Source of the DNA: an uncultured delta proteobacterium
GTDB lineage: Bacteria > Bdellovibrionota > FAC87 > UBA2466
Direction: 5' to 3'
Length of the DNA stretch: 64,000 nucleotides
Assembly (NCBI GenBank): GCA_963778115.1
Contig: CAVZSV010000007.1
Location: 293,719-357,718 of the forward strand
The notes under the pieces are model-generated. The model ran no database searches. It was not told the DNA's origin and was given only the letters and a program-made list of their open reading frames with translations. Below, piece after piece: positions 6,607-24,005 of this stretch. Numbering within the stretch: the stretch's first letter is position 1; each line of letters begins with the position of its first letter. A program made the position numbers and the translations under genes.

Positions 6607-7668
6607 ATGACTAGAACACTTTTGTCTTTCTTTTGGTTCCTTCTTTTGGCGGGCTGTTCGGGACCTGCGCTTCAAATGTCCGGAGCAACTGCGAACAATA
6701 ATTCAACCACGGTTCCTTCCGGCGGTAGCTCTACGAATAAAACAGGTGCTGGAACAAGCGGCGTCACGGGAGGAACCCCTACTAGTTCGACGACTGCCAC
6801 CCTTTGTTATCCTCAAACGGTTCTTACGCCGACAGCGACTAACTCAGTTAACGCCATTCTGCCTGCGGCTTATTGGCGCCTTAACGATTACTCCACGAAA
6901 CCCACGGCGGCGGATTCCTCTGGCTATACCAATTCAAATAACGGAACCTACGGAAGTGGTATCGCAGACTCTACGTTGAGTCCGCTCGTCGCTGTGGCGG
7001 GAATCACGAACGCCTCAGCCCTATTCTCAAATGCTACCAGCAGTATTATCGGTTTCTCTAATGCGCTTAATAGTAATTTTAATGCGAGCAGTACTGCCGC
7101 GACGGTTGAATTTTGGATGCTTTGGGGCGGACCTAATGGAACTAATGGCAGCACCAGCAGTAATGAAATGCCCTTCACCTTCGGAAGCGGCACTGGAAAT
7201 GCCTACGATTTTACGGTTCACACTAACAACAACGGAACCTACTTAGCGTTCAACGCCACCAATAATACCTATTATGGCGTTGCCTATACTCCCTCTACTA
7301 CCACCTGGGTCCACATCGCCGCTGTCTTTCAAAACGGCGCTTCGGGCACTAATCAGAACCCCGTCACCGTAGCCAATAACCTTATCTACGTAAATGGACA
7401 GCTCATGCTCTCACCGACCATCGCTGCGGCGGCCAACCCTACGGCAAATACTATCCTCGGGAGCTCTAATTTCTCGGGCTCTCTTAGCAGCAACATCCAG
7501 ATCTCTGGATGGCGCGGAGTTACTGGTAGCGGGTCGAATTATACCGGTTCGAATGATAATTTTTTCATTGGGAATCTAGCGGAAGTGGCGCTCTACAACG
7601 GCGCTCTCTCGGCTGACGAAATCGCCCTTCACTATAGCGCTGCTAACATTCCTTGCGTCGCTCCTTAA
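6607..7668 (+). CDS. lipoprotein with C-terminal LamG-like (concanavalin A-like lectin) domain
   Basis: Signal peptide plus lipobox LLLAG|C. The C-terminal ...LAEVALYNGALSADEIALHYSAAN matches the LamG_3 domain end motif repeated in the giant protein at 10057..14934. Confidence 0.6.
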   Translation: MTRTLLSFFWFLLLAGCSGPALQMSGATANNNSTTVPSGGSSTNKTGAGTSGVTGGTPTSSTTATLCYPQTVLTPTATNSVNAILPAAYWRLNDYSTKPTAADSSGYTNSNNGTYGSGIADSTLSPLVAVAGITNASALFSNATSSIIGFSNALNSNFNASSTAATVEFWMLWGGPNGTNGSTSSNEMPFTFGSGTGNAYDFTVHTNNNGTYLAFNATNNTYYGVAYTPSTTTWVHIAAVFQNGASGTNQNPVTVANNLIYVNGQLMLSPTIAAAANPTANTILGSSNFSGSLSSNIQISGWRGVTGSGSNYTGSNDNFFIGNLAEVALYNGALSADEIALHYSAANIPCVAP

Positions 7669-10056: not shown

Positions 10057-13000
10057 ATGAAACGTTCGAACAACATAGGCAAAGCGCACTTCCTGCGAGC
10101 ACTCACGATCTTAGCTATTGTGTTTGCTTTTCGCGCGAACGCCGAAGTGCAGACGACTCTTAATATGACCGTACCTGCGTTGGTCATGGGAACGTCGGGG
10201 ACCTTTAGCTCTTCCCAGGCCTCGGGCCCGGTCGGCACTAACACAGGAACCGTTCTTCATTCCTACGCGGGAGTGGAAAACTTTGTTCAGACTTCGGGAA
10301 CAGGTCGCTTTTCAACCCTTAACGGAACATCCGTGTTCGGAGTGGGTTTCGATACCTTTCAAATCTTTCAAAGTTTTGTCGATCCCGACTACCTGACCGT
10401 CGTAAATTCGAGCACCACTTGCCCTGTTAACAGTACCTACGACTGGATGATGGTTCGCATGAGAACCCCCGATGCTCCTCGAGACAGAATAAGTGCCACC
10501 GATCCTACGCTAACCGCGGGGGGAACTTTTGCCTATACGGCCTCGACATCCACGTTCACGGGAACCAACTATTTTAATCTGTCGGGTCCGACCTTGGCCT
10601 CAACCAATAGTTACGGAATTTCGGGGTATAACAGTACCGTCTGTACGTCGGGAAAGAATTTGGCTTACTCGACGGGAACAAGTTCGCTCGATCAATACCT
10701 CTATGTTTATTACGGCGCCACCAATGTCTCCATCGTGACCTCTAACGGAAACCCAGAGGTCATTATCGCGACCCCGCAAACCACACTTTCTGCGGGAACG
10801 ATGACTTCACTTGCGAATTACGTTTTCACCGGCCTATACACCTACTTTGTGAACGATACGTCTCAGACGCGCGCTAACGTTTACTTGTATCCGAACGCTG
10901 CCGGAACCACGTATACGATAAAACAAGAGACAAGCCTGACCGATCCCACTCAGTACACTACCATCGGTACCCTTACCTGCACTTCACTGAATTCACCGAC
11001 CACAGGCTTTTGTTCGGGAACCCTCACCCTTAGCGGAGTCACCGGAACGGGGAACGCCGTTTGTCTGGTTTCTCCCAACACCACGGAAAATCTTTTACTG
11101 TGCTCGGCCCAATATCCCGGTTACCTAAGTGATCCCGTCACGATTATCGGAAAAACCGTGAGCCAAGGGGTAAGTCAGGTGTCACTTCCCGCGGCGGCAG
11201 CCAGTGTTGCTAGTTCCGGACAGAGCACCAATCTCACCGCTACGGTCCAAAATTTAAGTTCCCGTTACGCTTCGGTCATCGGAAATCCGACAGATCCAGC
11301 TCTGGATCTCTCTTCGCCGTGGTCAAACACGGGAGCCTTCGGAGGCGGAAGCGGGACTTGTGGGACAACTTTAAAAGCGTATTCGTCTTGTACTTTCCCC
11401 GTGACCTATACCTCCACGGGAATCGGAACTAATACTGGGGTTCTTCGCGTGGCCTACGACAATGGAACCGGGACTAACCCGAATGCCACGGCAAATTTAG
11501 TGGGAACCACGGGGCTCGTAAGTCTTGCTATTACTCCTGCGGGAAATTATTTTGGAAATGGTTCCACGACTCAGTTAACGGTAACGGCGACTTATAGCGA
11601 TAGTTCCACCCAGAACGTGACTAGTGCTGTAAATTGGTCGTCGAGTAATACGAGTGCCGCTACGATCAGTAGTTTAGGGTTAGCTTCCTGGGTCGGACTG
11701 GGATCCTCGACCCTGACCGCTAGCCTTGCGTCCGTGTCCACGAATCAAACTTTCAATGTAGTAACACCCCCGGTTTTGACGGTCGTATCCAACCAAATTT
11801 TTCCGAGTTCCTATTTGAACCAGGGCGCTAACTTCACCCAAGATTTTAATAATATTTCTGGAGGATCTCCTGGCAACGATACCAACATGACTTATACATG
11901 CGTCTACGATCAGGTGGTGGATGGTAGCGTGAGTCCTGGAACCGCGTGCACCTCGCTTCCTGGCACCATTTCTTTCGGATCCACAACGGGAATATTTAAT
12001 TGGACACCCACGGCGGGAGCCTGGGGCCCGTATGAAATTAAAGTCACAGGTACTTTAGACACCAACGTCAGCGTCTCTGAAATCTTTGTCATCGACGTTA
12101 GGCCCGGATATGTAACGACGAACCTGCGAGGAGATTACGAAGCGCAATTTGCCAATCTCACCTCCAACTGGACCTCGGCTAGCTACTACTGGGATGATCT
12201 CACCACAAACGCGTTCAATGGAACCTCTAGTAGTACTACGAATGCCACCTGGGTAGGTAACGGAAGCTACTCCTCCCCGTACGCGCTGACTCTAAACGGG
12301 TCAGCCGACATGGACTTTGGCTCGTCACTGATGGCTTCCCAAACTAAAATGATGTTTACGCTGTGGATGGATCCGACCACCAGCACCAATACGGACCAAG
12401 TCATTTTAGGAAGCAGCAACGATGGTACGGGAAACGGCTTTAACCTAAGACAATCTAAAGGCTCGGCCGGCAAAGTGGATTTCTCGGTAGGTCTAGAAGC
12501 CACTTACACCGCATCGGTAAGCAATCTTACTCCGGTCGCCTACTATCGATTGGACGAGACATCAGGAACCACTCTCCATGATAGTTCGGCGAACGGCTAT
12601 AATTTAACTCTGGCGGGTTCGGGAACCACTCTTAATGTGGCAGGCGCTATTAATGGAGATACGGACACCGCCATTCAATATAACGGCAGCGGTTACGCCT
12701 GTAATACCACGTCAAACTCTCTTTCTGGAACGTTTACCGTCGAAGCTTGGGTCAACCCCTCGGCCACGGGAAGTACTTACGGGATTGTTGGGAGTCGAGA
12801 ATCCAGCGACTACTCGTTTGATATGAGCTACATCAGTGGACAATTTCATGCGGATATCGGAAATGGCACGAGTTGGCTCACCCAAACCGCCAATACCACC
12901 GCAAGCACGTACACCACACTCAACGCTTGGTACCATGTCGTCTATGTCGTCACTCCTACGGGCTACACGGTCTATGTAGATGGCGTAAACGCCGGAAGCA

Positions 13001-14934
13001 ATAGTTACACCAGTGCGACTCCCCTGCTTTTCAACTCCAGCCACAATCTTTGTGTCGGTGCCAGCGGATCCAATTTAAATAATTTTAAAGGCAAGATCGA
13101 CGAGGTCGCTGTCTATAATACAGCCCTAAGCTCGACACAAATCTTAAACCATTACAATTTAGGCAGAACCTACTTCACGACCGTCGTAGGCGATTCCCCG
13201 ACCGCTTATTGGCGTCTGGGAGAGACTTCAGGAACGACTCTCGCCGACTCCACCGCCAATGCTTACAACCTCACCATCTCGGGATCGGGCTATACGATGA
13301 ATCAAACCGGCGCTATCTCCGGAGATTCCAATGGAGCGCTCTTGATGACGGGAGCCTCGCAGAACTGTTATACGGGTTCCGCCACATTGCAAGGAACGTT
13401 CAGTGTCGAAGCCTGGGTCTACCCCACTAATGCGACTTCGCTTAACGGAATCGTCGGGAGTCGAGCCAGTGGAGATGAATCTTTCGACATGAAGTATGAT
13501 AGTGGAGTTTTTCACGGCGATATTGGAAACGGGAGTAGTTGGATAACGACAGCGGCGGATACGGCGGCCTCGTACACCACTCTCAATACTTGGTATCACG
13601 TGGTCTATGTAGTGACACCGACGGGGTATACGATCTACGTAAATGGGACCAACGCCGGAAGCAATACCTGGGCGTCGGCAACTCCGATACTCTTTAATAG
13701 CACTCACACTCTGTGCGTAGGAGCTGATTCCGATGCGGCATTTGAGGAGTTAAGCGGAAAGTTAGATGAAGTTGCCATTTACAATTACGCACTGACCTCG
13801 ACTCAAGTCGCCAATCACTACAATACAGGCATCAATTCGTCCGCAGGAGTGACCTCTTGTACTTCGCTCTCCACTCTGGGCAGCGGAGTTTGGAATGCGA
13901 TCGCCGGTATCTTTGATGGAACCAATGCCATCTTGTACGTAAACGGTAGACAGGAATGCACCATGACGGTCTCGGGATCCTTAACGACACCCGCTTCCGA
14001 CGTCATCGCAGGGGCGACTTCAGCCACTTCGAAATACTGGACAGGATCTCTGGCGGAGTTGCAGATCTATGGCGCGACGGGCGCCACTACCGTTGGAACT
14101 GCCGCCAACGTAAATACGAACTTCACTTCCACCGCCGATCTTTTCCGACAAACTCCCGTAGGAGGCATCGTAACTAACGGTTTGGTACTCCATTACGATG
14201 CCGCCAATGCAACACGGGGACTTGCCTTCCCTGGCGACGGTATCAGCCAGACCTCATGGTTTGATCTCTCCTCTTCGATTTTAGATGGAACTTTAAATGC
14301 GTTTACCGGCACGGGAACTTCCGGTTGGACGGGTTCTGGAACTGCCTCTAGCCCCTATGCCCTTACCTTTAACGGATCTTCAAACTACGTGAGCACGGGC
14401 TATACTCAGACTTCAGCGACGGGATATACCATCGAGGTTTGGGTCAATACGACGGACGCGGGAACCGAAAGAACGTTTGTTAACGATCGCGGAAGCGCCG
14501 GATCTGGCAGCAGTTTAACTCTTGGAATCGGGACCACTGGCGGCGGACATGGAGGAGCGGGTTTAGTGGGATGGGAAGTCGACTCTAACTCCCTAGATAT
14601 CGGAGTCTCCTCAACGACTGCCGTAAACGACGGTAAATGGCATCAGGTAGTGGGAACCTGGTCGGCCTCCTCGGGAACTGCCGTAGCGGCAAGTCAGTTC
14701 ACCATTTACATCGACGATGCGGCAGCCGCGACAACCTCGGGCTCTATAGGCTCAGCCACCTCTCCACTTACCGGCCTAGGAGGAACCAGCATTGGATACC
14801 ACTCTCTTTGGGGAACCTATTTGAACGGTGCTATCGCCAAAGTTGCTATCTACAATCGGGCACTCGCCGCTTCCGAGGTGGTACAAAACTGCAAAGCGAT
14901 CGTGGGACGATTTTCGACCGGGGTTTGTCATTAA
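10057..14934 (+). CDS. giant secreted adhesin-like protein (1625 aa) with a Big_2 domain and multiple LamG-like (concanavalin A-like lectin) domains
   Basis: Signal peptide MKRSNNIGKAHFLRALTILAIVFAFRANA. Bacterial Ig-like group 2 signature (...ITPAGNYFGNGSTTQLTVTATYSDSSTQNVTSAVNWSSSN...). At least four LamG_3-type modules end in (K/A)(I/L)DEVA(V/I)YN.ALS..(Q/E)(I/V)..HYN. Two adjacent modules are about 70% identical. Confidence 0.75.
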   Translation: MKRSNNIGKAHFLRALTILAIVFAFRANAEVQTTLNMTVPALVMGTSGTFSSSQASGPVGTNTGTVLHSYAGVENFVQTSGTGRFSTLNGTSVFGVGFDTFQIFQSFVDPDYLTVVNSSTTCPVNSTYDWMMVRMRTPDAPRDRISATDPTLTAGGTFAYTASTSTFTGTNYFNLSGPTLASTNSYGISGYNSTVCTSGKNLAYSTGTSSLDQYLYVYYGATNVSIVTSNGNPEVIIATPQTTLSAGTMTSLANYVFTGLYTYFVNDTSQTRANVYLYPNAAGTTYTIKQETSLTDPTQYTTIGTLTCTSLNSPTTGFCSGTLTLSGVTGTGNAVCLVSPNTTENLLLCSAQYPGYLSDPVTIIGKTVSQGVSQVSLPAAAASVASSGQSTNLTATVQNLSSRYASVIGNPTDPALDLSSPWSNTGAFGGGSGTCGTTLKAYSSCTFPVTYTSTGIGTNTGVLRVAYDNGTGTNPNATANLVGTTGLVSLAITPAGNYFGNGSTTQLTVTATYSDSSTQNVTSAVNWSSSNTSAATISSLGLASWVGLGSSTLTASLASVSTNQTFNVVTPPVLTVVSNQIFPSSYLNQGANFTQDFNNISGGSPGNDTNMTYTCVYDQVVDGSVSPGTACTSLPGTISFGSTTGIFNWTPTAGAWGPYEIKVTGTLDTNVSVSEIFVIDVRPGYVTTNLRGDYEAQFANLTSNWTSASYYWDDLTTNAFNGTSSSTTNATWVGNGSYSSPYALTLNGSADMDFGSSLMASQTKMMFTLWMDPTTSTNTDQVILGSSNDGTGNGFNLRQSKGSAGKVDFSVGLEATYTASVSNLTPVAYYRLDETSGTTLHDSSANGYNLTLAGSGTTLNVAGAINGDTDTAIQYNGSGYACNTTSNSLSGTFTVEAWVNPSATGSTYGIVGSRESSDYSFDMSYISGQFHADIGNGTSWLTQTANTTASTYTTLNAWYHVVYVVTPTGYTVYVDGVNAGSNSYTSATPLLFNSSHNLCVGASGSNLNNFKGKIDEVAVYNTALSSTQILNHYNLGRTYFTTVVGDSPTAYWRLGETSGTTLADSTANAYNLTISGSGYTMNQTGAISGDSNGALLMTGASQNCYTGSATLQGTFSVEAWVYPTNATSLNGIVGSRASGDESFDMKYDSGVFHGDIGNGSSWITTAADTAASYTTLNTWYHVVYVVTPTGYTIYVNGTNAGSNTWASATPILFNSTHTLCVGADSDAAFEELSGKLDEVAIYNYALTSTQVANHYNTGINSSAGVTSCTSLSTLGSGVWNAIAGIFDGTNAILYVNGRQECTMTVSGSLTTPASDVIAGATSATSKYWTGSLAELQIYGATGATTVGTAANVNTNFTSTADLFRQTPVGGIVTNGLVLHYDAANATRGLAFPGDGISQTSWFDLSSSILDGTLNAFTGTGTSGWTGSGTASSPYALTFNGSSNYVSTGYTQTSATGYTIEVWVNTTDAGTERTFVNDRGSAGSGSSLTLGIGTTGGGHGGAGLVGWEVDSNSLDIGVSSTTAVNDGKWHQVVGTWSASSGTAVAASQFTIYIDDAAAATTSGSIGSATSPLTGLGGTSIGYHSLWGTYLNGAIAKVAIYNRALAASEVVQNCKAIVGRFSTGVCH
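12538..13830 (+). repeat. intragenic tandem duplication (2 x ~666 nt; two LamG-like modules) inside the giant gene
   Basis: Residues YYRLDETSGTTLHDSSANGYNLTLAGSG...KIDEVAVYNTALSSTQILNHYNLG are repeated as YWRLGETSGTTLADSTANAYNLTISGSG...KLDEVAIYNYALTSTQVANHYNTG, with a 222-aa period. The antisense ORFs 12712..13044 and 13228..13707 are by-products of this repeat. Confidence 0.8.
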
Positions 14935-17921: not shown

Positions 17922-19067
17922 GTGGCGTCTTCTCTCGATCTTATTTTAGTAGGAGGCGGGCTATCTAACGGCCTTTTCGCTTACGCGCTTTCGAAACTAC
18001 GGCCCGACGTCCGCTTTCTGTTGTTGGAAAAGCAGGATCGGCTCGGGGGATGCCACACGTGGTCGTTCCATGACTCGGACGTTTTGCCGGAGGCATCCTG
18101 GATTCGTCCGCTGATTTCGCAAAGCTGGCCGAGCCATCAGGTCTACTTTCCCAATTTACAGCGTCGCTTAAACTCGCCTTACCATTCGATCCGCTCGTCT
18201 GAGTTCCACGAGAAACTGATGGCACAGCTTGGCTCGTCCGTTCGGCTCAACACGCAAGTGGTGTCAGCCGATGACACCCGAGTGACACTCACTTCGGGCG
18301 AAGCGCTCACCGCGACGGCGGTTATCGACGGCCGCGGTTTTGTACAAGGAAGCGCTCGCTCGGCATTCCAGAAATTTGTCGGTTTGGATGTGAGGCTTGA
18401 AGCTCCTCACGGCTTGGCGGGGCCCATTCTTATTGATGCCACCGTACTTCAAGAAGATGGCTTTCGATTTTTCTATTGTCTTCCTTGGAGCGAAACCGAA
18501 TGCCTCATTGAAGATACTCATTATAGTGATACTTCCGACATCGATACCGAACGCTATTTGCAGAACATCCGAGGCTACGCGATTGCTAAAGGATGGAAGA
18601 TCGCAGAAGAGCGGGGACGCGAACAGGGCGCGCTTGCTATTCCGTTGCACAAAGCCGCTGCCGCAACCTCCGCCGGACCCATGGCGATGGGAACACGCGC
18701 CGGAAATTTTCACCCGACCACCGGATATTCTCTGCCAGACGCCGCCAGGCTTGTGAGCCAACTTATTCGACACCGCGAGTGGTCGCCTAACGTGCTGCGA
18801 CGGTCGATTTCGGAATATGGATTCTCTCGCCGATCGTCCAGAAGTTATTTTCGTTTCTTAAACCGCATGATGTTTTTCGGTGCCAAGCCCCAAAAGCGAT
18901 ATCGTATTCTGGAGCATTTTTATCGATTGCCCGATAGGATAATCCAAAGCTTTTACTCGGGGGAGATATCGCTGGGCGACGGACTTCGGATTCTTCTAGG
19001 AAAGCCACCGATTCCAGTCTACAAAGTGGCCCAAGCTATCGTAATCCCGGGATTCAATGCCAAATAA
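17922..19067 (+). CDS. crtY: lycopene beta-cyclase CrtY
   Basis: Near-collinear similarity to bacterial CrtY: DLILVGGGLSNGL FAD-binding N-terminus, GGCHTWSFH, IDGRG, LIEDTHY, FHPTTGYSLP, RILLGKPP. Confidence 0.85.
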   Translation: MASSLDLILVGGGLSNGLFAYALSKLRPDVRFLLLEKQDRLGGCHTWSFHDSDVLPEASWIRPLISQSWPSHQVYFPNLQRRLNSPYHSIRSSEFHEKLMAQLGSSVRLNTQVVSADDTRVTLTSGEALTATAVIDGRGFVQGSARSAFQKFVGLDVRLEAPHGLAGPILIDATVLQEDGFRFFYCLPWSETECLIEDTHYSDTSDIDTERYLQNIRGYAIAKGWKIAEERGREQGALAIPLHKAAAATSAGPMAMGTRAGNFHPTTGYSLPDAARLVSQLIRHREWSPNVLRRSISEYGFSRRSSRSYFRFLNRMMFFGAKPQKRYRILEHFYRLPDRIIQSFYSGEISLGDGLRILLGKPPIPVYKVAQAIVIPGFNAK

Positions 19068-19117: not shown

Positions 19118-20191
19118 ATGTCCGATAGTGAAGCCATTGAAGCATTTCTTCCCCAGGACGTCTCCGGTTTGTTAGATCTCATCGATTTGAAATTAGGCGC
19201 AGGAAAGACTGCGGAAGCCGAAAAGGAGCCCAGACACGTCATCGCAGCCCTTTTGAGCACGCATCTTCTGCGCCCCGTCACGGAATTCTTAGATAGGCCC
19301 GCGAAAGGAATTCGTGGGCAGCTGGTCGAAATTGGCTTCATCCTCGGCGGGCCTCGCGAACTTTCCTTAAACAGCACTGAAAAAGAACTCTGCCGGCGCG
19401 GTTCGGAACTGGTCGAGTCAATCCACGCCGGCTCTTTGGTCGTGGATGATATTCAAGACGACAGTCAGGTGCGTCGTGGTTCTCCCGCCCTTCATTTGCA
19501 ACACGGTGTCCCTTTAGCGATCAACGCCGGTAATTGGCTGTATTTCTGGCCGCTCGAGCGGCTCGAGAAGTGGAATCTCCCTCCGGCAGCCGAGTTAAGC
19601 ATTCACCGCGCATGTCACCGCGCCTTGGTGAGAGCTCATTTCGGACAAGCGCTGGATATCGGAACTCCCATCGATCAGATTCCTCAAGATAGGATCTCGC
19701 CGGTCTGTTTGGCTTCCTTAGAGTTAAAAACAGGGGCCCTTATGGGTCTCGCCACCGCGATCGGCTGCCTTTTGCGGGGAGGAGATTCCAAGCGGGTGGA
19801 GATGGTTCACGAGTTCGGTGTCAGATTTGGGGTGGCACTTCAAATGTTTGATGACATCGGAAATCTAAAAGCGACTCGCGAAAACGATCCGAAACAGTAT
19901 GAAGATCTCCGTCTTAAACGACCCTCCTGGATTTGGTCGGTGGCTTCAAAGTACTTGGATGAAGCTGACTTCGCCTCGTTTCGCAAGAGTGTCAACCAGC
20001 TTCCCAATACCACCCCTCTGCATGAGTGGTTGCAATTAAACCCACTACTCACCCAGGCCAGGCTTGAAGCGACTCTTTACCTTGAAGACTGCTTAAGACG
20101 ACTTGAAGAAGGGGTTGAAGAATCGGCTTTCCGCAAGACTCTCTCCACGGTGGAGGAGATCGCAGAGACCCTCACCACATCGTATGGCTGA
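19118..20191 (+). CDS. polyprenyl diphosphate synthase (CrtE/GGPP synthase-like trans-isoprenyl transferase)
   Basis: First Asp-rich motif VVDDIQDDSQVRRG and second motif FDDIGN, with an RBS gaagagaagg upstream. Placement between crtY and crtI/B supports a CrtE role. Confidence 0.65.
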   Translation: MSDSEAIEAFLPQDVSGLLDLIDLKLGAGKTAEAEKEPRHVIAALLSTHLLRPVTEFLDRPAKGIRGQLVEIGFILGGPRELSLNSTEKELCRRGSELVESIHAGSLVVDDIQDDSQVRRGSPALHLQHGVPLAINAGNWLYFWPLERLEKWNLPPAAELSIHRACHRALVRAHFGQALDIGTPIDQIPQDRISPVCLASLELKTGALMGLATAIGCLLRGGDSKRVEMVHEFGVRFGVALQMFDDIGNLKATRENDPKQYEDLRLKRPSWIWSVASKYLDEADFASFRKSVNQLPNTTPLHEWLQLNPLLTQARLEATLYLEDCLRRLEEGVEESAFRKTLSTVEEIAETLTTSYG

Positions 20192-22643
20192 TCCGAAGAA
20201 AAAAATTGCGGTCATCGGAAGTGGGTTTGGCGGATTAGCCACTGCGATTCGCCTTCAGGCGGCTGGCTGCGACGTCACCATTTTTGAAAAAAGAGATCTC
20301 CCCGGAGGACGGGCCTACGTTTACCACGATAGTGGTTTTACTTTTGACGCTGGACCTACCGTCATCACGGCTCCTCACTGTTTGGAAGAGCTTTTCACCG
20401 TTTGCGGCCGCAAAATGGAAGACTACGTGGAGCTTGTCCCCCTTTCGCCTATGTATCGACTCTGCTGGGAAGATGGGGATCGCTTCGATTATAGTCACGA
20501 CCTTAAGACAACCGTCACCCAAATCGAGAAGCGGTCCTTAGAAGATGCCAGAAATTACGAACGCTTTCTCGATTACAGTCGAGAGGTTTTTGAAGCGGGC
20601 TACACCGAACTTGCTAGTGTTCCTTTTCTCAATTGGGGAAGCATGATCCGCGCTTCGCCTGAGCTATTGCGACTGAATGCTTTTCGCTCCGTCTATGGAG
20701 TAGTTTCAAAATATATTAAAGATCCCCATCTCAGGCAGGCCTTTAGTTTTCATTCCCTGCTGGTAGGAGGCAATCCCTATAGTACGTCCGCCATTTACAC
20801 TTTGATCCACTATCTGGAGAAAAAATGGGGAGTCTTTTTCCCCAAGGGGGGAACTCACGCCTTGGTCACAGCCTTGGTTCGTCTCTTTGAGGAGATGGGG
20901 GGACATATCGTTTACGGTGATGGGGTAACCGCCATTCGGACGGACCAAGGAAAAGTGACGGGTGTCGCCACCACGAAAATTGAATTCACTCCCTGTGATG
21001 CCGTAGTCAGCAATGCCGACGTTAATCGAACTTATGTAGATCTTCTTCGCAAAGAGCCCCGTGTCGAAAGAACACGGCGGCGCATCGAGGCAATGAGCTA
21101 TAGTCCGTCACTTTTTGTTATCTATTTTGGAACCAACCAAAAATATCCCGACGTAGCCCATCACAATATTCTCTTTGGAAATCGTTACCGCGAACTTTTG
21201 GCCGATATTTACGATAAGGGCATTCTAGCTGACGATTTTTCGCTTTATCTGCACGCACCGACTCGCACCGATCCGTCACTTGCCCCTGAGGGCTGTGATA
21301 CCTTTTATGCGCTTTCTCCCGTCCCTCATTTGGAAAAATCGACGACCGATTGGAATACCGAGGGGCCAAGGTACGCCGATCGTATTTTGGATTACTTAGA
21401 AAAGCATTACTTGCCCGATCTGAAGAGCCACATCGTCACGCGAAGAATCTTTAGCCCTTTGGATTTCAAAAATGAACTCAACGCTTATGCCGGCTCTGCT
21501 TTTTCACTGGAACCTTTACTTACTCAAAGCGCTTATTTCCGCGCGCACAATCGAGATTCAGCAATTCGCGGGCTCTATTTGGTAGGTGCCGGTACCCATC
21601 CCGGAGCTGGAATTCCCGGAGTCGTAAATTCAGCCAAAGCTACCTCAGGGCTCGTATTAGAGGATTTACTTCCCAAGCCGGCGATCGTTCGTCACAGTCC
21701 CGCGGCGAGTCTTGAAGAAAAAAGAGCCCTCGAAAAATGCCGCGAGATGATTCGAGTGGGCTCTAAGAGTTTCTCATTCGCTTCCAGACTTTTCAGCCGC
21801 CCCATTCGAGATGCCGCCTGCTTTCTTTATGGCTGGTGCCGGTACTGTGATGACCAGATCGATCTTATCGAGGACTCCCAAACTCAGCAGGAGAGGCTCT
21901 CCGAGTTGGTCGCCTCCACAAGAGTGGCGTTTGAAGAAGAAAGCGCTCCGCTGCCCGAAGTGTTCGTAGCGTTGCGCTACATCGCTCGCCAGTACGAGAT
22001 TCCCGCCTTTTATGCGACGGAGCTATTGGAAGGATTAAGAATGGATCTCCGTCGGACTCAATACCGTACGTTGGATGAATTGACTCTCTACGGGTACCGG
22101 GTCGCCGGAACCGTAGGTCTTATGATGTCTCACGTCATGGGAGTTACCGACGAGCGGGCCTTAAAGCATGCCGCTGACTTGGGGATAGCCATGCAGCTGA
22201 GTAACATTGCCCGAGATGTTGTGGAAGATTTCCAAATGGGGCGCGTTTATCTCCCCCTGGAGTGGTTGGAGAAAGCTAGAGTGCCCGCATTTGAATTGGC
22301 GGAAATCAAGTATCGCGATGGCTTGGCACGTGTCGTAGCGCAACTTTTAGATAGCGCCGACGGCTACTACCGGTCGGGAAATCGGGGACTGAGGTATCTT
22401 CCTTTGAGAAGCGCACTCGCCGTCGCCATGGCAAGTTCGGTCTATGCCAAAATCGGACACTTGGTTCGCAAGAAAGGACCCAGGGCCTGGGACCGACGGA
22501 CCTACGTTCCCCTCTGGAGAAAATGTTTTTCGCTGGTTCGCGGAGTTTTCTTGGTGGCCTTGACACTTCCCTATCGATTGGAGCAACGTCGTAAACCTAT
22601 TCCATTACTCCGGCTGTGTCGACATACTCCAGGAGAATTTTGA
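20184..22643 (+). CDS. crtIB: phytoene desaturase CrtI fused in a single ORF to phytoene synthase CrtB
   Basis: The N-terminal ~500 aa are collinear with CrtI (KKIAVIGSGFGGLATAIRLQAAG ... GAGTHPGAGIPGVVNSAKATSGLVLEDL). A 15-20 aa linker follows, then CrtB (VGSKSFSFASRLF, YGWCRYCDDQID, AGTVGLMM, ARDVVED). The ATG at 20184 overlaps the crtE stop (ATGGCTGA). Confidence 0.85.
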   Translation: MADPKKKIAVIGSGFGGLATAIRLQAAGCDVTIFEKRDLPGGRAYVYHDSGFTFDAGPTVITAPHCLEELFTVCGRKMEDYVELVPLSPMYRLCWEDGDRFDYSHDLKTTVTQIEKRSLEDARNYERFLDYSREVFEAGYTELASVPFLNWGSMIRASPELLRLNAFRSVYGVVSKYIKDPHLRQAFSFHSLLVGGNPYSTSAIYTLIHYLEKKWGVFFPKGGTHALVTALVRLFEEMGGHIVYGDGVTAIRTDQGKVTGVATTKIEFTPCDAVVSNADVNRTYVDLLRKEPRVERTRRRIEAMSYSPSLFVIYFGTNQKYPDVAHHNILFGNRYRELLADIYDKGILADDFSLYLHAPTRTDPSLAPEGCDTFYALSPVPHLEKSTTDWNTEGPRYADRILDYLEKHYLPDLKSHIVTRRIFSPLDFKNELNAYAGSAFSLEPLLTQSAYFRAHNRDSAIRGLYLVGAGTHPGAGIPGVVNSAKATSGLVLEDLLPKPAIVRHSPAASLEEKRALEKCREMIRVGSKSFSFASRLFSRPIRDAACFLYGWCRYCDDQIDLIEDSQTQQERLSELVASTRVAFEEESAPLPEVFVALRYIARQYEIPAFYATELLEGLRMDLRRTQYRTLDELTLYGYRVAGTVGLMMSHVMGVTDERALKHAADLGIAMQLSNIARDVVEDFQMGRVYLPLEWLEKARVPAFELAEIKYRDGLARVVAQLLDSADGYYRSGNRGLRYLPLRSALAVAMASSVYAKIGHLVRKKGPRAWDRRTYVPLWRKCFSLVRGVFLVALTLPYRLEQRRKPIPLLRLCRHTPGEF

Positions 22644-23230
22644 TGTCGACACTTCCTAACCGCTCTTTCTTAGAAGATGCGTGGCTCTATCTTTGCCGCA
22701 TCAACACGTTTGAAAGAACGGATTGGAATGTCTACTTCGCCTGGGTAGGACTGATGCTGGGGCTTCTCATTGCAGTGTCGGGCTTTGTGCTTAGCGGATA
22801 CCTCCGGGGAGTCCATTATCCCGACTATGTGTGGAACGTCCCTGTGGGGACCTTTATTTTTATCATCGCCATCGCTTTTGATACGATAGGACATCGCACG
22901 GTTTACAAAGAAGCTCTAAAGAGTGGAGAATCGCTCATTCATCACATCACCATTGCGGCAGGTATCTCTAGTTGCATGCTCCTATGTCTGGCGTATTACC
23001 ACCGATCCTTCTTTACCATCCCTGCTCTCTGTCTTGTGGCGCTATCGATTTTCTATAGTGTTATCGACGAGGCAATGCACTGGTTCCGCTATTACTCAGG
23101 CAAATCCGATCGCATAGAAATGTGGAGCCATTTCTTCATCTTCGTGGGCCATACGATCATGATCGTTAGCTGGAGCTACTGGCTTTTGCAGGGCTATCCC
23201 GGCGTAGCTGAAACTCTTCGCCTCCTCTAA
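22643..23230 (+). CDS. polytopic membrane protein with conserved His residues, translationally coupled (TGATG) to crtIB; candidate carotenoid-modifying enzyme
   Basis: 195 aa with 5-6 hydrophobic helices and His at IGHRT, IHHIT, AMHWF and VGHTIM. It matches neither CrtZ nor CrtW motifs. Confidence 0.5.
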   Translation: MSTLPNRSFLEDAWLYLCRINTFERTDWNVYFAWVGLMLGLLIAVSGFVLSGYLRGVHYPDYVWNVPVGTFIFIIAIAFDTIGHRTVYKEALKSGESLIHHITIAAGISSCMLLCLAYYHRSFFTIPALCLVALSIFYSVIDEAMHWFRYYSGKSDRIEMWSHFFIFVGHTIMIVSWSYWLLQGYPGVAETLRLL

Positions 23231-24005
23231 GGTGTCACTCTCCTTGCGGGCCCAAAAGGTACGGGTCACGTAAAGGACGAACTCCATAGGAGTGGATAAG
23301 CAGGTCCAGATCCCTCCTTACCGTGTTTGAGCGGGAAAACCTAAAATGGGATCCTCGCAACCCCCTAGAAATGAGGATTTCCTGCTCCTTCGGGGTCGGC
23401 AGATTGAGCCACCGAAGCTTTTCTTCTGGCGAGCGAGGAATCAACGACCAATATCTGTCCACACCCTCGACAAGGGGAATATCATATCTGCCCTCTACCA
23501 TTTGGGTAAGACTACTATAGCGATAGGCTTCGACTTGAGACGCCAAGCCCGCCCTTACGGGATTTCGATAGACATACTTATATACATAGGCCACCGAATA
23601 GGCGCTATCGAGAATGGTTTGGCTCGATCGTCCCCCGAAAATATGATTGATCCTGCTCGACTCGTATTTTATTCGTCGGGCAGTTTCAGTAAGAAAATGG
23701 CGCAAGAACCTGTCCAAGTTTTCTAGGGGGGTTCGTACCATCATGTGAAAGTGATTCGACATGAGTACGAAGCTATGGATCCAGACCGAAAACCGGTCTG
23801 CGGAGTCCGAAAGCTGGTCACAGAAAATTGCCCATACTATCGGCAAGGGCACGTCGAACCACTCTTTGTTATTGCATCTATTTGTTATGTGATAAGGAAA
23901 TTCGCTTACCGCGATGAATTTTTTTCGAGGCATGCCTCTTCGTATTTCAAGACTCGTTCCAACGGAATGACCCGTACCTTTTGGGCCCGGAAGGAGAGTG
24001 ACACC
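23231..24005. mobile_element. REP-RAYT-REP unit: Y1 HUH transposase gene flanked by 38-bp inverted repeats
   Basis: Left repeat 23231-23268 ggtgtcactctccttgcgggcccaaaaggtacgggtca. Right repeat 23968-24005 is its reverse complement with 1 mismatch (G/C). Confidence 0.7.
23235..23933 (-). CDS. REP-associated tyrosine transposase (RAYT; IS200/IS605-like Y1 HUH transposase)
   Basis: HUH motif SNHFHMMV and catalytic Tyr region YVYRNPVRAGL, in the 232-aa COG1943-like architecture. Confidence 0.75.
   Translation of the reverse strand: MPRKKFIAVSEFPYHITNRCNNKEWFDVPLPIVWAIFCDQLSDSADRFSVWIHSFVLMSNHFHMMVRTPLENLDRFLRHFLTETARRIKYESSRINHIFGGRSSQTILDSAYSVAYVYKYVYRNPVRAGLASQVEAYRYSSLTQMVEGRYDIPLVEGVDRYWSLIPRSPEEKLRWLNLPTPKEQEILISRGLRGSHFRFSRSNTVRRDLDLLIHSYGVRPLRDPYLLGPQGE

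Follow-up and report, generated by a model that had tools for sequence, protein, structure and literature searches.

Is the fused carotenoid gene of an uncultured Bdellovibrionota-like bacterium a real gene, and does its product carry out two consecutive reactions? The locus lies in a 64-kb stretch of contig CAVZSV010000007.1 (GenBank assembly GCA_963778115.1), referred to here as the window, meaning the whole stretch of DNA that was analysed. A phytoene desaturase (CrtI) and a phytoene synthase (CrtB) are encoded there by a single open reading frame (ORF), crtIB, as a first-pass annotation of the window had claimed. This is a genuine single-ORF fusion and no assembly artefact. Very probably it is also a genuine bifunctional fusion that makes lycopene from geranylgeranyl diphosphate (GGPP), where we infer the products and the C40 specificity from homology and operon context.

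Continuity of the crtIB reading frame

On the forward strand, crtIB (predicted bifunctional phytoene desaturase/phytoene synthase) occupies positions 20184..22643 as one ORF, with 819 codons before its TGA. Both the ORF list and the raw sequence place an ATG at 20184, a TGA at 22641-22643 and zero stops in between, giving a protein of 819 amino acids. The mechanically derived ORF begins further upstream, with a TTG at 20103, and public assemblies call the start at 20184. Stops are present in both alternative frames across 21600-21800. Pfam assigns Amino_oxidase to residues 16-491 (E 7e-44) and SQS_PSY to residues 524-779 (E 2e-65). The first-pass description of a continuous 819-codon ORF that joins a complete desaturase to a complete phytoene synthase agrees with these observations, and every string quoted in it is found in the sequence (AKATSGLVLEDL ending at residue 495, LPKPAIVRHSPAAS LEEKRA, VGSKSFSFASRLF, YCDDQID and ARDVVED).

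An assembly or sequencing artefact could produce the same picture if an error of one nucleotide near the crtI stop and the crtB start had merged two overlapping genes. The genes of unfused relatives overlap in different frames, and one indel would merge them; assembly breaks of this kind may occur, as suggested by a 505-aa and 316-aa pair on one Logan contig, in a cluster that is >90% identical to fused proteins. Against this, the Logan assembly of ERR11523675, made by a second assembler, calls the same 819-aa protein, and over the 8.4 kb of this locus it agrees with the window at every base. Furthermore, a search of 5.8 billion proteins (NCBI, JGI, ENA and Logan) recovered about 65 clusters, at the 90% identity level, of full-length CrtI-CrtB proteins with both Pfam domains, mostly of about 800-840 residues and 51-74% identical to the query. 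These diverged clusters come from unrelated samples and keep the in-frame architecture; a look for CrtI-CrtB fusions among relatives was one of the checks that the first-pass annotation proposed. The stop or frameshift at the junction that it had named as refuting the fusion is seen neither in the second assembly nor in these clusters.

The interdomain linker LPKPAIVRHSPAAS (21669..21710, forward strand; residues 496-509, 14 residues) points in the same direction. Across the family (33-sequence alignment), it has a mean identity of 9% and a length of 3-37 residues, and it is in frame throughout; its counterparts in unfused relatives are the C-terminal tail of CrtI and the N-terminal leader of CrtB taken together. 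Because the linker varies by whole codons while the domains are conserved, the family represents a maintained two-domain protein, and its variation is beyond what recurrent sequencing error would produce. An artefact is therefore extremely improbable.

Two complete enzyme domains

The CrtI domain, an FAD (flavin adenine dinucleotide)-dependent phytoene desaturase by assignment, comprises residues 1-495 and ends at position 21668 (20184..21668, forward strand). It scores 675 bits against the NCBIfam model crtI_fam (TIGR02734), for which the cutoff is 238. Its FAD-binding GxGxxG Rossmann motif is GSGFGG at residues 12-17, with glycines that are invariant in the family alignment, and GLYLVGAGTHPGAGIPGVVNS at residues 463-483 matches the bacterial-type phytoene dehydrogenase signature PROSITE PS00982. 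Over residues 7-496, its full length, the domain aligns with CrtI of Pantoea ananatis (4DGK; E 1.8e-193), which is also its top Foldseek match. In the 33-sequence alignment it shows 66% mean identity to the 32 fused relatives, and its best named match is Peredibacter starrii (67% identical). This homology, together with the co-transcribed CrtY gene, predicts that the domain carries out the four-step desaturation of phytoene to lycopene.

The phytoene synthase (CrtB) domain follows at residues 510-819 (21711..22640, forward strand). It matches SQS_PSY (PF00494) with 221.6 bits, compared with a gathering score of 26, and covers model positions 2-263 of 263; the ORF terminates 40 residues past this domain. 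Its Asp-rich, Mg2+/diphosphate-binding motifs are DDQID (556-560) and DVVED (678-682), and D556, D557, D560, D678 and D682 are invariant in the 33 aligned sequences, over which the CrtB part has a mean identity of 52%. PROSITE PS01045 (signature 2) is matched at residue 666. Over residues 513-781, the CrtB half aligns with the CrtM and phytoene synthase structures 8IS6 and 5IYS.

Predicted structure and use of the fused protein

AlphaFold2 (AF2), run on the family alignment, models two confident domains with a mean predicted local distance difference test score (pLDDT) of 87, residues 498-506 falling below 50, and a predicted template modelling score (pTM) of 0.63. By profile and Foldseek comparison, no solved chain in the PDB spans both crtIB halves.

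A real fusion might still not be used as a bifunctional polypeptide, owing to internal initiation, proteolysis of the linker or the conversion of one domain into a catalytically dead scaffold. The linker is disordered in the AF2 model and could be cleaved, and two in-frame start codons, the only ones there, lie near the junction (ATG at residue 522, GTG at residue 525). However, neither of these codons has a Shine-Dalgarno-like sequence, and initiation at either would delete the conserved first CrtB helix. Every catalytic residue of the two domains is unchanged throughout the family, and the 64-kb window holds no second crtI or crtB to replace a missing activity. We consider such a non-bifunctional use unlikely and read CrtIB as one protein with two probably active domains.

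Unfused relatives and the origin of the fusion

To place the fusion among its relatives, genomes were scanned at one genome per GTDB species and ORFs were checked locus by locus; among the best 80 loci, both domains were scorable in 78. Of these, no more than four are truly fused, the other 74 being split. Three of the fused loci (L001-L003) are in metagenome-assembled genomes (MAGs) labelled 'Deltaproteobacteria/Pseudomonadota' and belong to the clade of the window; the fourth (L071) is in a Puniceicoccaceae (Verrucomicrobiota) MAG. The tblastn span 'query residues 1-815' was discarded as evidence of fusion, as tblastn joins adjacent genes and the ORF check left these four.

In the closest split relatives, crtI and crtB overlap with crtB in another frame, by 1 nt in L016, 4 nt in Pantoea (L072), 8 nt in L021 and L027, and 17 nt in L022 and L033. 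The cultured Peredibacter starrii (CP139487.1) carries crtY-crtE-crtI-crtB-orf193 with a crtI/crtB overlap of 8 nt. Its locus (L083, 3195-10582) is an extended cluster that reads cyclase homologue, DUF2141, FA_hydroxylase, crtY, crtE, crtI, crtB, orf193. A further set of loci (L004-L007, L009-L013, L015, L017, L026 and L034) has crtB in the frame of crtI, separated by one TGA and no other stop; these belong to gamma- and alphaproteobacterial and Myxococcota MAGs, Jiella and Croceicoccus. In such same-frame loci one point mutation would fuse the two genes, or stop-codon readthrough could. Given the overlap or the single separating stop seen in relatives, it takes no more than an indel of one base, or a lost stop codon, to fuse the genes. 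The fusion would have arisen from an ancestral operon with overlapping, adjacent crtI and crtB, by a small frame-restoring mutation at the overlap.

In a neighbour-joining (NJ) tree of CrtI, a clade without any unfused member unites 32 of the 36 window-type fusions. The corresponding CrtB clade takes in six unfused loci, which makes fissions or further fusions likely; both NJ trees are rough, too rough for exact counts of events. A single origin of all fusions was considered and set aside: the best-bipartition analysis gave one main clade plus outliers, and midpoint-rooted tests of the most recent common ancestor were uninformative. Within the cluster of P0024 (90% identity), whose fused proteins have 811 residues, the 505-aa and 316-aa pair (P0127/P0128) is encoded instead on an 8.4-kb Logan contig; this split stems either from a frameshift in the assembly or from fission in the very recent past.

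Comparison with known fusions

The first-pass annotation had called the fusion unusual. This holds insofar as fused loci are a minority (4/78), and fails insofar as a bacterial crtIB was published in 2023, eukaryotic CrtIBY has the same order and the databases contain many divergent clusters. A natural crtIB fusion was described in Verrucomicrobiota proteorhodopsin (PR-1) operons (ISME J 2023, PMC10284914). The eukaryotic CrtIBY has been known since 2018 in thraustochytrids and is active, yielding beta-carotene in yeast, with knockout strains being white (PMC5924542, PMC10016063). With these two precedents, the architecture was already known.

The Verrucomicrobiota locus L071 shares with the window a single ORF with N-terminal CrtI, a short linker and C-terminal CrtB, located after crtE; its crtIB encodes 803 residues with Pfam Amino_oxidase and SQS_PSY. 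In contrast, L071 has the rhodopsin-crtE-crtIB-orf257-blh operon of the 2023 report, whereas the window has crtY and a 195-codon gene, orf195, and is without rhodopsin or blh. The window is 47% (CrtI) and 39% (CrtB) identical to L071, compared with about 65% and about 57% to unfused Bdellovibrionota-type genes, and L071 falls outside the window clade in the rough CrtI NJ tree. As the window is nearer to the unfused Bdellovibrionota-type genes than to L071, the Verrucomicrobiota fusion would be an independent event, and these sequence comparisons indicate that the fusion of the window clade probably had a separate origin. The window clade thus adds a large number of new members, probably derived independently, whose lineage and operon type differ from those of the published case.

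Thraustochytrid CrtIBY and Thecamonas CrtIBY-Blh have the I-then-B order of the window (PMC5924542, PMC10016063). The eukaryotic proteins add a C-terminal CrtYc/d cyclase, and Blh in Thecamonas, whereas the cyclase of the window is a separate CrtY-type gene. Pantoea and P. starrii have the same enzymes and gene order as the window, in two polypeptides whose genes overlap by 4 nt (Pantoea L072) and 8 nt (P. starrii). Fungal CrtYB is likewise a natural carotenoid fusion with phytoene synthase; its partner is a cyclase, and the joined steps are not consecutive (general knowledge and PMC6350077). Engineered fusions of carotenoid enzymes lower intermediates (PMC6350077). The name 'CrtIb' in PMC9907078 and in myxobacterial papers does not denote a fusion, being that of a desaturase paralogue.

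An exhaustive HMMER scan, run over 1.84 billion representatives of clusters at 50% identity and complemented by Pfam scans, found at least eight clusters with the I-B architecture, mutually ≤45% identical. One protein (P0500, 1449 residues) has the layout CrtI-CrtB-...-BCD (Blh), resembles the eukaryotic type and is about 28% identical to the window protein. Another (P0427, 814 residues) is a reversed CrtB-CrtI fusion, with SQS_PSY at 19-277 and Amino_oxidase at 326-796.

These findings underscore that the CrtI-CrtB fusion is recurrent, easily evolved and common in metagenome data, the ease of its evolution being due to overlapping genes that are one small mutation away from fusion. Its presence in a large, uncultured freshwater Bdellovibrionota-like clade with no link to a rhodopsin operon broadens the only published bacterial case. 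The linkers of the family (3-37 residues) are natural designs for the engineering of pathways to lycopene and beta-carotene. The gain in practice is modest, as both the chemistry and the architecture are known already. Because the cultured P. starrii holds the unfused form of the operon, fused and unfused forms can be compared for phytoene leakage, and P. starrii is a tractable organism in which to study the unfused pair of enzymes as well as the family of orf195.

Operon context and the predicted pathway

The crtIB gene belongs to a translationally coupled operon that comprises crtY, a GGPP-synthase-like gene, crtIB and the gene of a 195-aa membrane protein. The first of these, crtY (17922..19067, forward strand), encodes a lycopene beta-cyclase of 381 residues from a GTG start; it matches Pfam Lycopene_cycl (E 1e-70) and the CrtY equivalog TIGR01789 (366 bits, cutoff 215). 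The second gene (19118..20191, forward strand) encodes a crtE-like polyprenyl, probably GGPP, synthase of 357 residues (Pfam polyprenyl_synt, E 7e-37), which stays under the cutoff for every NCBIfam equivalog. It has the Asp-rich motifs DDIQD (at 110) and DDIGN (at 245); most crtE-like homologues of related clusters likewise have the DDxGN form and not the usual DDxxD. A DDxxN motif is characteristic of GGPP synthases of the eukaryote type (type III). A crtE-like gene stands in the same position at 49 related loci.

The order of crtY, crtE-like gene, crtIB and membrane protein gene, as given in the first-pass annotation, is matched by the Pfam and NCBIfam assignments, and both of its overlapping start and stop codons are present. 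More specifically, the stop of the crtE-like gene overlaps the crtIB start by 8 nt (ATGGCTGA, 20184-20191), and in TGATG at 22641-22645 the crtIB stop overlaps the start of the next gene. The same four-gene operon is found in a relative that is 74% identical (L082, GCA_038325205.1). A promoter and terminator scan of the operon returned nothing informative above shuffled expectation.

In the pathway that we propose, crtIB would be a selectively maintained gene for one polypeptide of about 90 kDa with two catalytic domains. The crtE-like synthase would supply GGPP, and the C-terminal, Mg2+-dependent CrtB domain would join two GGPP into 15-cis-phytoene by means of its two Asp-rich motifs. The N-terminal FAD-dependent CrtI domain would desaturate and isomerise phytoene to all-trans-lycopene, which the separate CrtY would cyclise to beta-carotene. 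The likely benefit would lie in a fixed 1:1 stoichiometry, in co-localisation at the membrane and in a shorter path for the very hydrophobic phytoene between the active sites. Channelling of phytoene by CrtIB is plausible on this basis and is held with much less confidence than the bifunctional fusion itself.

Several points weigh against this picture. At residue 636, PROSITE PS01044 (signature 1) fits except for a G at position 2, where C, S, A or M is expected; this G is common to the relatives P0002, P0008, P0014 and P0039. The best NCBIfam model for the C-terminal half, the CrtB equivalog NF042419, is matched with 265.5 bits, under its cutoff of 480; the domain is therefore assigned to the family, and its C40 specificity is read from the operon context. 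The AF2 model gives no confident fixed interface between the domains; with this and the pTM stated above, a physical channel lacks structural support. Since most relatives are unfused (74/78), any advantage of the fusion is neither large nor universal. The analysis covers 64 kb of the genome, and other crt genes may exist elsewhere. Finally, the 2023 report itself terms its bacterial gene 'putative' (PMC10284914).

The low equivalog score also bears on the product. The enzyme could use a C30 substrate as CrtM/CrtN-like proteins do or make squalene (HpnCDE-like), or its CrtI domain could stop at neurosporene or proceed to didehydrolycopene. Besides the sub-cutoff CrtB score, an HpnD match of 176 bits and the crtE-like synthase without a chain-length-specific equivalog match would fit such a product. 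Yet the best matches are to CrtI (the 675-bit model score and 4DGK) and to CrtB models, well above HpnD, HpnC and CrtM, and the co-transcribed CrtY equivalog needs a C40 psi-end substrate. The P. starrii operon, too, includes a second cyclase homologue and an FA_hydroxylase-type enzyme. A different substrate or product is highly unlikely on this evidence, and lycopene from GGPP is retained as the predicted product.

A retinal/rhodopsin operon as in the published crtIB case was considered for the window and rejected. Searched by tblastn with the L071 rhodopsin and Blh, the 64 kb gave no match below E = 4, and the comparison of orf195 with Blh by hhalign gave a probability of 0.1%.

A conserved membrane protein downstream of crtIB

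The last gene of the operon, orf195 (22643..23230, forward strand), has an ATG that overlaps the crtIB TGA and encodes a conserved, uncharacterised integral membrane protein. Pfam and NCBIfam gave no match to it, even at E≤10, nor did the PDB by fold or profile; its AF2 model is all-helical with a pLDDT of 92.6. Nearly all of its 944 homologues are unnamed or 'hypothetical', and the best 120 listed are 61-80% identical to it, the best named match being P. starrii orf193 (66% identical). It was found in 15 related loci, P. starrii among them, and in every one of these it lies directly 3' of crtB or crtIB. Its invariant residues include D80, H84, E96, H100, D142, E143, H146, D156, E159, H163 and H170.

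This suggests, as a hypothesis, that orf195 is a membrane metalloenzyme of the carotenoid pathway. A wider proposal joins several parts: crtIB as the core of a coupled four-gene module, orf195 as an integral-membrane metalloenzyme of a new family acting on the CrtIB/CrtY carotenoid, a rhodopsin-unrelated pathway of the fusion clade in uncultured Bdellovibrionota-like bacteria, and a covalent coupling that measurably channels phytoene. Taken jointly, we regard these claims as a tentative and rather doubtful proposal. Under it, orf195 might act as a ring hydroxylase of a new type, as a ketolase or as a cleavage enzyme. In terms of novelty, orf195 exceeds the crtIB fusion itself.

Rhodopsin genes were observed within a few kb of unfused crtI/crtB in L018 and L028 (Bdellovibrio-like MAGs) and in L053 and L075 (Pirellulaceae). 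As orf195 occurs in none of these four loci within the fetched flanks, they provide a weak argument against a retinal-related role of the protein.

Flanking genes

The operon is flanked by ordinary chromosomal genes, including SDR, RecJ, M13 peptidase, UvrB, glycosyltransferases and a Na+/H+ exchanger, and the window has a G+C content of 50%. The closest relatives of its UvrB are, without exception, uncultured MAGs labelled Proteobacteria, Deltaproteobacteria or Bdellovibrionaceae bacterium; together with the P. starrii matches of CrtI and orf195, this makes an uncultured Bdellovibrionota-like lineage the probable source. Spirobacillus/Silvanigrellales was rejected as the source on account of a G+C content of 32%. 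Convergent on the end of the operon lies a 232-aa ORF (23235-23933, reverse strand) with a sub-threshold match to IS200-like Y1 transposases (E 9e-4). Possibly a gene like those of REP-associated tyrosine transposases, it was found in none of the fetched related loci. Further upstream, a 1625-aa protein (10057-14934, forward strand) carries four Laminin_G_3 (concanavalin-like lectin) repeats, and a second Laminin_G_3 protein of 353 residues is encoded at 6607-7668; both are probably surface or secreted proteins.

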